A stretch of DNA of 402 bases, taken from sequence record MW984358.1; one strand, 5' to 3'. Each line of letters begins with the position of its first letter. Positions within the stretch are counted from its first letter, which is position 1. Positions 1-402 of this stretch are shown here, piece by piece. Made by a program: the position numbers and the translations under genes. This DNA comes from a phage. The notes beneath the pieces are model-generated. The model saw only the letters and a program-made list of their open reading frames with translations, did no database searches and was not told the origin of the DNA.

Positions 1-23
1 TGGTACCTTTCTATTCTCACTCT
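1..23 (+). other. 3' end of pIII signal-peptide coding region (..V-P-F-Y-S-H-S); signal peptidase cleavage expected after codon 21-23
   Basis: tg|gta cct ttc tat tct cac tct matches the M13KE leader/cloning junction as I remember it. Confidence 0.85.
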
Positions 24-402
24 TGTATTTGGTGTGTGGGGGAGCCTTGCGGAGCCTTTTGGTGGAGGTTCGGCCGAAACTGTTGAAAGTTGTTTAGCAA
101 AATCCCATACAGAAAATTCATTTACTAACGTCTGGAAAGACGACAAAACTTTAGATCGTTACGCTAACTATGAGGGCTGTCTGTGGAATGCTACAGGCGT
201 TGTAGTTTGTACTGGTGACGAAACTCAGTGTTACGGTACATGGGTTCCTATTGGGCTTGCTATCCCTGAAAATGAGGGTGGTGGCTCTGAGGGTGGCGGT
301 TCTGAGGGTGGCGGTTCTGAGGGTGGCGGTACTAAACCTCCTGAGTACGGTGATACACCTATTCCGGGCTATACTTATATCAACCTTCTCGACGGAATCC
401 TC
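1..402 (+). CDS. gIII: Filamentous phage M13 gene III (minor coat/adsorption protein pIII) as an N-terminal peptide-display fusion; partial at both ends. Leader frame has codons at 3-5 ... 21-23; pIII frame has codons at 61-63 ... 400-402; the two are offset by +1 across the 37-nt insert.
   Basis: Frame with codons at 73,76,... translates without stops to AETVESCLAKSHTENSFTNVWKDDKTLDRYANYEGCLWNATGVVVCTGDETQCYGTWVPIGLAIPEN-(EGGGS)3EGGGT-KPPEYGDTPIPGYTYIN..., which I recognise as mature pIII N1, linker and N2. Upstream 3-23 encodes VPFYSHS, the end of the pIII signal peptide as found in M13KE. No in-frame ATG in the window, so the start lies upstream. Confidence 0.93.
2..7. other. KpnI/Acc65I site (GGTACC), the 5' library cloning site of M13KE-type vectors
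   Basis: GGTACC read directly at 2-7, in the expected position relative to the TCT CAC TCT leader end. Confidence 0.9.
24..60 (+). other. Displayed-peptide library insert, 37 nt (36 expected for a 12-mer NNK library); contains an apparent single-base insertion
   Basis: Lies between leader end TCT (21-23) and spacer GGT GGA GGT TCG (61-72). Leader-frame codons 24-47 (tgt att tgg tgt gtg ggg gag cct) all end in G/T; pIII-frame codons 46-60 (ctt gcg gag cct ttt) also all end in G/T; the two registers differ by one base. Confidence 0.85.
61..72 (+). other. Gly-Gly-Gly-Ser spacer (GGT GGA GGT TCG) joining displayed peptide to mature pIII
   Basis: Exact spacer sequence as I recall it for Ph.D.-type libraries, in frame with mature pIII. 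Confidence 0.85.
71..76. other. EagI site (CGGCCG), the 3' library cloning site
   Basis: CGGCCG read directly at 71-76, spanning the Ser-Ala-Glu codons as in M13KE. Confidence 0.9.
89..110 (-). other. Annealing site of the standard -28 gIII sequencing primer (recalled from memory)
   Basis: + strand GTTGTTTAGCAAAATCCCATAC at 89-110 is the reverse complement of the primer as I remember it. Confidence 0.55.
157..176 (-). other. Annealing site of the standard -96 gIII sequencing primer (recalled from memory)
   Basis: + strand CGTTACGCTAACTATGAGGG at 157-176 is the reverse complement of the primer as I remember it. Confidence 0.55.
274..330 (+). repeat. gIII: Glycine-rich linker G1 of pIII, encoded by near-perfect 15-bp tandem repeats (EGGGS x3 + EGGG)
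   Basis: Units gagggtggtggctct (274-288), gagggtggcggttct (289-303), gagggtggcggttct (304-318) and partial gagggtggcggt (319-330). Confidence 0.9.
331..402 (+). other. gIII: Start of pIII N2 domain (F-pilus-binding domain), truncated by the window edge; last ~6 codons diverge from the expected sequence
   Basis: Translation TKPPEYGDTPIPGYTYIN matches pIII N2; the following codons read L-L-D-G-I-L where I recall P-L-D-G-T-Y. Confidence 0.8.

Follow-up and report, generated by a model that had tools for sequence, protein, structure and literature searches.

An apparent +1 recoding site in a phage-display clone: ordinary library and linker codons read out of phase

Does a 402-nucleotide stretch of phage DNA (sequence record MW984358.1, the whole of which is referred to here as the window) carry a +1 recoding site, or does it only have the look of one? 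An initial annotation had proposed that an insert of 37 nt puts the gene III leader out of frame with pIII and that a compensating +1 shift could occur at UUU_U, helped by a Shine-Dalgarno (SD)-like GGAG placed as in prfB and by slow decoding of the rare codons AGG and CGA further downstream. Its accompanying caveats, that efficiency would be low and that the site is relevant only if the 37-nt insert is real, were sound. The flagged 'recoding site' is nevertheless ordinary; its elements form no coherent signal. They are by-products of the library codons GCG GAG CCT TTT (Ala-Glu-Pro-Phe) and of the constant Gly-Gly-Gly-Ser linker, read out of phase, and the 'recoding context' was neither designed nor evolved. 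The features on which this answer depends are collected in Table 1.

The window is one sequencing read of a clone from a commercial M13 phage-display library, of the NEB Ph.D.-12 type in the vector M13KE. The library flanks GGTACCTTTCTATTCTCACTCT ... GGTGGAGGTTCGGCCG are present and are followed by gene III; the leader portion includes the KpnI site GGTACC (2-7) and TTTCTATTCTCACTCT (...PFYSHS), with the signal-peptidase cleavage point after base 23. Bases 76-385 match M13 identically with the sole exception of T103, where the window agrees with a published M13KE primer, and the -28 gIII primer string corresponds, in reverse complement, to bases 89-110. The pIII frame, whose codons begin at 1, 4, 7 ..., is open throughout the window. 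Several errors in the last 17 bases make it clear that the read is unedited. The window begins just 3' of a sequence commonly used as the forward PCR primer for M13KE inserts, so that the template was probably an amplicon. BLAST against phage records returned only wild-type M13/f1/fd, from base 70 on, and no M13KE record. A search for sister clones or related loci, using the flank pattern with a gap of 21-50 nt, gave no matches in viral, metagenome or genome contigs, and none of six variants of the candidate insert peptide was found in the literature. Rfam, at E-values up to 10, gave no family match, only a single noise match to a nematode snoRNA.

Table 1. Features of the window bearing on the proposed shift site (a colon in a peptide marks the point of the shift).
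Feature	Coordinates	Strand	Basis or remark
Gene III leader end, M13KE	1..23	+	Sequence and translation; same flank printed in M13KE library oligos
Random library insert	24..60	+	37 nt as read; design 36 nt, 12 NNK codons
SD-like run GGGGGAG	38..44	+	-8.4 kcal/mol with anti-SD tail; 12 nt upstream of the UUU codon; stronger than GGAG
GGG_G, second perfect in-frame +1 re-pairing site	39..42	+	Inside G run 38-42; product would be CIWCVG:SLAEPF-GGGS
Perfect direct repeat GGAGCCTT	41..58	+	Copies at 41-48 and 51-58; 10-nt spacing
Surplus-base stretch CCTTGC	45..50	+	Sole stretch where removal of one base restores twelve NNK codons
SD-like 4-mer GGAG	51..54	+	-5.8 kcal/mol; in library phase, part of codons GCG GAG
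Slippery run UUU_U	57..60	+	P-site UUU; A-site UGG in 0 frame, GGU in +1; library phase CC[T TTT]
Constant GGGS linker GGTGGAGGTTCG	61..72	+	Holds GGAGGU (64-69), strongest SD-like element of the region, -10.5 kcal/mol
Linker cassette	63..77	+	Leader frame: UGGAGG 63-68, UUC 69-71, GGC 72-74, CGA 75-77; constant vector sequence
Mature gene III (pIII N1 domain and glycine-rich linker)	73..385	+	M13 comparison
First leader-frame stop TGA	84..86	+	3' limit for any rescuing shift
Low-quality read end	386..402	+	Differs from M13 by several substitutions and missing bases

Between TCT (21-23) and the linker the insert measures 37 nt, as given by one read that is unedited and of low quality at its 3' end. 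Ph.D.-12 inserts are designed as NNK codons, in which the third base is G or T, and as read the insert does not resolve into twelve of these (36 nt) unless the phase jumps by one base at 45-50. The NNK phase follows the leader frame through base 47 (codons 24-47) and, from base 49, that of pIII; read as leader-frame codons, TGC, GGA and GCC (48-56) are incompatible with NNK, and in the pIII frame all codons of 46-60 comply. This break in phase places the surplus base within CCTTGC, 7-12 bases upstream of TTTT, and removal of one base from 45-50 gives the peptide CIWCVGE[P/L][A/S/W]EPF. A surplus base within TTTT or within the G run was rejected under the NNK design, as such deletions leave non-NNK codons. 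NNK compliance after a single deletion was also obtained in 13.7% of shuffles, not a rare outcome for a G+T-rich insert, and the mapping of the surplus base therefore rests on the known library design. The initial annotation had overlooked this evidence of phase, and the GGG_G at 39-42 is likewise absent from it.

If the 37 nt are taken as read, the arithmetic of the initial annotation is right and a +1 shift is required before the TGA. The leader frame, with codons from 3, 6, 9 ..., runs GGA GCC TTT TGG TGG AGG TTC GGC CGA AAC TGT TGA, and GGAG, its CC spacer (55-56), TTT_T, AGG (66-68) and CGA (75-77) all lie where they had been placed. Translation with a +1 shift at the P-site TTT does give CIWCVGEPCGAF:GGGSAETVES, i.e. 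CIWCVGEPCGAF joined to the normal GGGS-pIII. M13KE has one gene III, so that the fusion is the only source of pIII, and for a phage with such an insert rescue by frameshifting would be obligatory for growth.

As far as can be inferred from a single read, the extra base most likely arose by error and does not reflect a real n+1 insert. A read or PCR error, with the surplus base absent from the phage genome and no recoding at all, is given somewhat better than an even chance, and a real n+1 clone, with all its possible readings taken together, a little less than an even one. The error would be one of base calling or of PCR, in the simplest case the duplication of a base in the CC or TT at 45-48, and the phage would then encode CIWCVGE(P/L)AEPF-GGGS-pIII in frame with nothing recoded. 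In a naive Ph.D.-12 library any kind of frameshift was found in only 0.075% of reads, and the authors of that work expected frameshifted clones not to give infectious virions. For a stretch of 37 nt in a single-pass read, the chance of an insertion miscall is estimated here at roughly 0.1-2.6%, the upper figure being set by the absence of errors across about 350 checkable bases. A number of observations count against an error. In the 310 bases 3' of the insert (76-385) T103 is the one difference from M13, which suggests that the insert lies in a good part of the read. The insert contains two perfect in-frame +1 sites, as would be expected of a real frameshifted clone that had survived selection for pIII, and we estimate that this favours a real insert by a likelihood ratio of about 5-10. 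Out-of-frame inserts pass pIII-dependent selection in other systems: after Hyperphage packaging the class with one extra base made up 27% of unique reads. Display clones with a disrupted frame have also been documented.

How often such an arrangement would arise by chance was calculated by simulating 200,000 random NNK 12-mers, each with one extra base, in the vector context of the clone. At least one perfect in-frame XXX_X site was present in 15-18% of these n+1 inserts and UUU_U in 8-9%, whilst two perfect sites, as in the present insert, occurred in 1.7-2.3%. An SD-like 4-mer stood 1-4 nt upstream of a perfect site in 1.5-1.9%, and the exact combination of GGAG, 2 nt and UUU_U was found in 0.06-0.07%. 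Taken singly, GGAG and TTTT are each as frequent in the window as chance predicts, and GGAGNNTTTT, which occurs once, was found somewhere in 4 of 200 dinucleotide shuffles; FSscan-type scoring was confined to the S rule. The slippery run by itself is thus unremarkable, and the full combination of motifs is uncommon but was defined post hoc from the same sequence.

That the insert is real, an n+1 oligo in which synthesis doubled a C or T at 45-48, and that the phage was rescued mainly by unprogrammed slippage at UUU_U, is possible but doubtful, although for a real clone UUU_UGG would be the likeliest place of such leaky slippage. Peptidyl-tRNA-Phe would slip from UUU at 57-59 to UUU at 58-60 while the A site awaited tRNA-Trp on UGG, a small fraction of ribosomes would thereby shift +1 before the TGA, and the resulting CIWCVGEPCGAF-GGGS-pIII would be made at roughly the per-cent level or below, with GGAG, AGG and CGA adding little or nothing. 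The initial annotation correctly recognised UUU_U as a site at which tRNA-Phe can re-pair perfectly one base forward, and the A-site codons, UGG in the 0 frame and GGU in +1, also favour slippage there. tRNA-Trp is reportedly of low abundance and the tRNA-Gly reading GGU is said to be abundant. The rarity by chance of two perfect sites speaks for slippage as well, whereas the codon in the E site, GCC, pairs strongly and +1 shifts are favoured by weak E-site pairing. The product would contain three cysteines, and an odd number of cysteines is disfavoured in pIII display. It also tells against this reading that the extra base was read once only, in a single read. Published precedents fall on both sides. 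In a minority of species UUU_U is the natural shift site of RF2, and argI reportedly undergoes +1 frameshifting at a high level at UUU UAU, without a stop or a hungry codon. In Yersinia yopN a +1 shift has been proposed for the identical hexamer UUU-UGG, and in E. coli test genes 1-nt indels were suppressed without programming at levels that reached 1-10% (2024, PMC10861913). There are also known phage-display clones with a disrupted frame that are decoded through +1 or -1 shifting. However, in RF2 the efficiency of CUU_U far exceeds that of UUU_U, and mutation of UUU-UGG in Y. pseudotuberculosis yopN left the hybrid protein in place. Folding of bases 24-120 gave a z-score of -2.0 and a local hairpin at 52-71 that contains the slippery run; a downstream stimulatory RNA structure was rejected, as this hairpin would be unwound once UUU occupied the P site.

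It is unlikely, though by no means negligible, that the insert is real and that functional pIII is produced mainly through shifts elsewhere in 24-83. Candidates are GGG_G, the linker cassette UGGAGG-UUC-GGC-CGA, and CCU_U at 45-48, which would skip the surplus base itself and give CIWCVGEP:AEPF; low-level non-canonical events might also sum to the same effect. Re-pairing at GGG_G is perfect, and the products of GGG_G and CCU_U would each have an even number of cysteines, but the A-site codon at GGG_G is GAG and there is no SD-like element upstream. GAG is a codon well supplied with tRNA. The linker cassette has GGAGGU on the 5' side of GGC at a distance of exactly 3 nt, and CGA as the A-site codon, yet re-pairing from GGC to GCC is poor, and that from CCU to CUU is likewise imperfect. 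In E. coli as many as half of the available codons have been identified as places of error frameshifting, and many of these are not slippery, but these data on diffuse sites concern -1 and not +1 shifts (PMC10861913).

A stronger form of the reading originally proposed, in which GGAG-CC-UUU_U would act as a prfB-like cassette, with anti-SD pairing pushing the ribosome into an efficient +1 shift and AGG and CGA slowing decoding, is very improbable. In its favour are an SD-like 4-mer close upstream of a perfect +1 site, the low frequency of the exact motif in the simulation, and the role of SD-like elements as major stimulators of +1 shifting in bacteria. The stimulatory spacing is 3 nt, however, and in that register the hexamer 48-53 (UGCGGA) offers only two Watson-Crick pairs and one G-U pair, so that GGAG cannot be regarded as a prfB-like SD; its 4-bp match falls in the register with a 1-nt spacer, at -5.8 as against -10.3 kcal/mol for prfB. 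Real RF2 sites avoid a competing SD-like sequence directly 5' of the stimulator, whereas here the stronger run at 38-44 competes, and the A-site codon is a sense codon and not a stop. The likeness to prfB therefore holds for UUU_U as an XUU_U shift site and fails for GGAG, in register, in strength of pairing and in the presence of the upstream run, and for the A-site stop. Nor do the rare codons help. AGG lies two and CGA five codons past the P-site UUU, which would be too far 3' to hold UUU in the P site; with AGG in the A site the P-site codon would be UGG and not UUU, and AGG and CGA should therefore be unable to promote a slip at 57-60. Both derive from the constant GGGS linker and the EagI region read out of phase and follow any insert that is one base too long. 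There is an equally slight chance that, in a real insert, chance has made a compact and efficient +1 cassette, in which the weak GGAG 1-2 nt from UUU_UGG stimulates slippage on a sense codon. If so, its spacing and context would lie outside the prfB rule, and the linker sequence UGGAGG-UUC-GGC-CGA might give every n+1 insert in the vector a second chance.

A real insert in a phage that is not self-sufficient, whether a defective genome supplied with pIII by a co-infecting phage or a product of PCR from a pool rather than a plaque, is a still remoter prospect; the probable amplicon template and the presence of frameshifted inserts at 0.075% in naive-library DNA would accord with it, but no feature of the sequence bears on such a reading and the standard practice is to sequence single plaques. 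Least credible of all is a non-standard event, namely a 10-nt hop of peptidyl-tRNA (GAG from 42 to 52, or CCU from 45 to 55) or slippage of RNA polymerase on T4 or G5: the repeat GGAGCCTT does provide matched take-off codons in the leader frame and landing codons in the pIII frame, and matched-codon hopping is known in E. coli from a review, but hopping needs a stop or slow codon after take-off, where CCU and UGC follow here, and transcriptional slippage was rejected because the reviewed bacterial cases involve runs of about 9 A or T, as against 4-5 here.

As the clone comes from a synthetic library, the locus carries little biological weight. It has been known since 1998 that frameshifting can rescue frame-disrupted display clones, and UUU_U is already familiar as a +1-prone site. 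The clone, if verified, would be one more case of leaky +1 decoding sustaining a phage with a single gene III. Its practical use lies in method: an indel within a library insert can be located by the NNK phase, which here identifies CIWCVGE(P/L)AEPF as the oligo-encoded peptide and shows the user what wrong peptide not to synthesise and what junction peptides to seek.

With prfB the clone shares an XUU_U shift site preceded by an SD-like element, and a shiftable P-site codon, UUU_U at 57-60 in the leader frame, where prfB has CUU_U or, in a minority of species, UUU_U. In prfB, however, the SD register is 3 nt and the element is strong, whereas the clone has a weak element in a register of 1 nt, or of 2 nt if the count starts at GGAG; prfB has a stop (UGA C) in the A site, which provides both pause and autoregulation, whereas the clone has the sense codon UGG and meets a leader-frame stop only at 84-86; prfB has no competing upstream SD, whereas the clone has GGGGGAG; and prfB is a conserved, autoregulated cassette, whereas the clone is synthetic random NNK sequence. 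It is the linker cassette at 63-77 that has the actual prfB geometry of SD, 3-nt spacer, P-site codon and slow A-site codon. AGG-AGG reportedly causes +1 frameshifting in E. coli. With frameshifting of that rare-codon AGG/AGA type, to which Ty1 also belongs, the clone has in common a rare leader-frame AGG, but it has only one, situated in the constant linker, and the preceding P-site UGG is unable to re-pair on GGA. The sites of the argI type, in which a pyrimidine comes directly after an in-frame UUU and the A-site codon is a sense codon, are matched by UUU_UGG at 57-62, although +1 shifting has been reported or proposed for argI and yopN and the clone is known from its sequence alone. The leaky suppression of 1-nt indels in E. 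coli (PMC10861913) operates without an evolved signal, at 1-10% in aggregate, but there it was -1 slippage suppressing deletions that was mapped, whereas the clone would need +1 slippage for an insertion. The clones of Carcamo et al. (1998 PNAS) and Goldman et al. (2000 FASEB J) are random peptide-pIII fusions with an insert of frame-breaking length, which the present clone would be if its one read is correct; for those clones there was reportedly evidence of binding and expression, where the present one has a single unverified read.

The flanks of the stretch at 24-60 match the M13KE library oligos as printed on sequence comparison, and the published -28 gIII primer string is the reverse complement of window positions 89-110. 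At position 103 the window has T versus C in wild-type M13, f1 and fd, giving Ser for Pro in AK[S/P]HTENSF, and because the published primer has the same base this is a vector-lineage difference, not a read error. Over the last 17 bases (386-402) the match to M13 breaks down, with several substitutions and then gaps (C386T and C396A, then missing bases), and the 402-base MW984358.1 window is therefore taken to be an unedited sequencing read; this tail resembles a Sanger read's unresolved beginning or end, left untrimmed. Window base 1 comes directly after a sequence often chosen as forward PCR primer for M13KE inserts; this, with the clean start (first 23 bases perfect) and ragged far end, hints that an amplicon was read in reverse, the insert then lying ~350 nt from where the read begins.

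Features of the phage-display read (window coordinates)
Feature	Position	Remarks
KpnI site	2-7	near window start
TTTCTATTCTCACTCT		after KpnI site, ahead of the 24-60 stretch
Insert, 37 nt	24-60	
GGTGGAGGTTCG	61-72	after insert
EagI site	71-76	
Gene III		after EagI site; 76-385 matches M13 gene III exactly but for T103

Ph.D.-12 inserts consist, by published library design, of twelve NNK codons (36 nt). In the leader frame (codons starting 3, 6, 9) every codon at 24-47 has G or T in third position, and the pattern is broken by TGC, GGA and GCC (48-56); in the pIII frame (codons starting 1, 4, 7) it holds for all of 46-60 and is broken by GTA (25) and AGC (43). Twelve NNK codons are obtained only by deleting one base within 45-50 (CCTTGC), with the peptide CIWCVGE[P/L][A/S/W]EPF, and so the surplus base lies 7-12 nt upstream of TTTT, outside both TTTT and the G run. 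As 13.7% of shuffles of the insert (78% G+T) also turn all-NNK after one deletion, this mapping rests on the known library design and not on the shuffle statistic. In library phase the flagged elements read GCG GAG CCT TTT (Ala-Glu-Pro-Phe), and the constant linker comes next. The insert opens (24-35) with Cys-Ile-Trp-Cys, a CxxC motif right after the signal-peptidase site; a third cysteine, TGC 48-50, comes from the leader-frame reading and exists only outside library phase. There is also a perfect 8-nt direct repeat, GGAGCCTT, at 41-48 and 51-58 (10-nt spacing); when NNK 12-mers with one base duplicated were simulated, only 0.7% had such a repeat. The NNK-mapped surplus base is the one that makes the copies identical, and it falls where the first of them ends; either coincidence or templated insertion between two nearly identical repeats may account for it.

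On balance the surplus base is likelier than not to be an artefact, and a real insert one base too long has a little under an even chance. Among naive-library reads only 0.075% contain a frameshift of any kind, and the authors of that figure expect no infectious virions from such clones; the chance of an insertion miscall over 37 nt of a single-pass read is by our own estimate 0.1-2.6%, its upper end set by the absence of errors among some 350 checkable bases. Both figures tell against a real insert. In its favour, the 310 flanking bases are clean, and survivor selection would enrich two perfect +1 sites, with an estimated likelihood ratio of 5-10. Moreover, after Hyperphage packaging, in which the fusion is the sole pIII source, inserts one base too long pass selection surprisingly well and make up 27% of unique reads.

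The leader frame translates as VPFYSHS, then CIWCVGEPCGAFWWRFGRNC and a stop. An initial annotation had proposed a prfB-like +1 site here, and its elements are indeed present in that frame: GGAG 51-54, CC 55-56, TTT_T 57-60, AGG 66-68, CGA 75-77 and TGA 84-86. Shifting by +1 when TTT occupies the P site restores pIII as it claimed, the computed product being CIWCVGEPCGAF joined to GGGSAETVES, and a second perfect +1 site that it lacked, GGG_G, lies at 39-42. The observation is thus confirmed; the interpretation finds partial support. In +1 frameshifting, SD-like stimulators work at 3-nt spacing, and RF2 sites are without a competing SD-like sequence just upstream (PMC5009743). Here the hexamer in the 3-nt register (48-53) forms two Watson-Crick pairs and one G-U with the anti-SD, and the 4-bp GGAG match falls in the 1-nt register (-5.8 kcal/mol, versus -10.3 for prfB) with stronger SD-like runs on both sides, GGGGGAG at 38-44 (-8.4) and linker GGAGGU at 64-69 (-10.5 kcal/mol); under FSscan's Shine-Dalgarno rule the S score at UUU_U would be zero. 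Nor should AGG and CGA serve as the slow codons aiding the slip. Both arise from out-of-phase reading of the constant linker and the EagI region, and consequently come after every insert that is one base too long; once AGG occupied the A site, UGG (63-65) would be in the P site, so that they should be unable to hold UUU there. In a predicted local hairpin (52-71) GAGCCUUU (52-59) pairs with GGAGGUUC (64-71), the slippery run thus pairing with the linker's SD-like element; as a downstream stimulator it is ruled out, the slippery run itself being inside it. The 97-nt fold reaches a z-score of only -2.0, and an Rfam search of the window gave no match. What is left of the proposed signal is a bare UUU_U.

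Random NNK 12-mers with one extra base were simulated in this vector context. Of these inserts, 15-18% had one or more perfect in-frame XXX_X sites ahead of the first stop in the leader frame, 8-9% had UUU_U, 1.7-2.3% two perfect +1 sites, 1.5-1.9% a perfect site preceded at 1-4 nt by an SD-like 4-mer, and 0.06-0.07% the exact GGAG, 2 nt, UUU_U. GGAG alone and TTTT alone each occur at chance frequency, and GGAGNNTTTT appears somewhere in 4 of 200 window shuffles. The slippery run is unremarkable; the full combination is uncommon, yet was defined after the fact.

Were the clone real, pIII would need a +1 shift between 24 and 83, since M13KE has a single gene III. The pIII frame has no stop anywhere in the window; just before base 1 a TAG within CCTTTAG of the wild-type M13 sequence should close it, and a rescuing shift upstream of the window would therefore be impossible. 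tRNA-Trp is scarce and the tRNA-Gly for GGU abundant. In the best candidate step, peptidyl-tRNA-Phe would slip from UUU (57-59) to UUU (58-60) while the A site waits for tRNA-Trp, tRNA-Gly then reading the +1 codon GGU. A minority of species shift at UUU_U in RF2, though with much lower efficiency than at CUU_U; in argI a +1 shift occurs at UUU UAU with neither a stop nor a hungry codon involved, and UUU-UGG was proposed as the +1 site of yopN, where the hybrid protein persisted after its mutation. However, +1 shifts are favoured by weak E-site pairing and the E-site codon here, GCC, pairs strongly, and the product would carry three cysteines. Alternatives are GGG_G, a CCU_U shift that would jump over the surplus base, diffuse non-canonical events, and the linker cassette at 63-77 (UGGAGG-UUC-GGC-CGA in the leader frame), which is the constant GGGS linker read out of phase and trails every one-base-too-long insert in this vector. 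The cassette has true prfB geometry: an SD close to consensus (-10.5 kcal/mol), a spacing of exactly 3 nt to the P-site codon, and slow CGA in the A site. Its GGC-to-GCC re-pairing is poor, however, and any effect doubtful. The matched codons of GGAGCCTT would formally allow a 10-nt hop from one copy of the repeat to the other, although no slow codon follows take-off. Transcriptional slippage is unlikely, the runs here being 4-5 bases versus about 9 A or T as described in a review.

The feature is best regarded as a chance by-product in a synthetic clone, its frame fault probably coming from read error, and as part of a synthetic library clone it has low biological weight. Of the five features that define a prfB-type site it lacks four: a stop codon, the strength and spacing of the SD, freedom from a competitor SD, and conservation. 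UUU_U fits the sequence definition of the error-prone UUU-pyrimidine sites. Nothing in the window is outside known kinds, and the decoding of frame-disrupted phage-display clones by +1 or -1 frameshifting is established (Carcamo 1998 and Goldman 2000, as cited in other papers).
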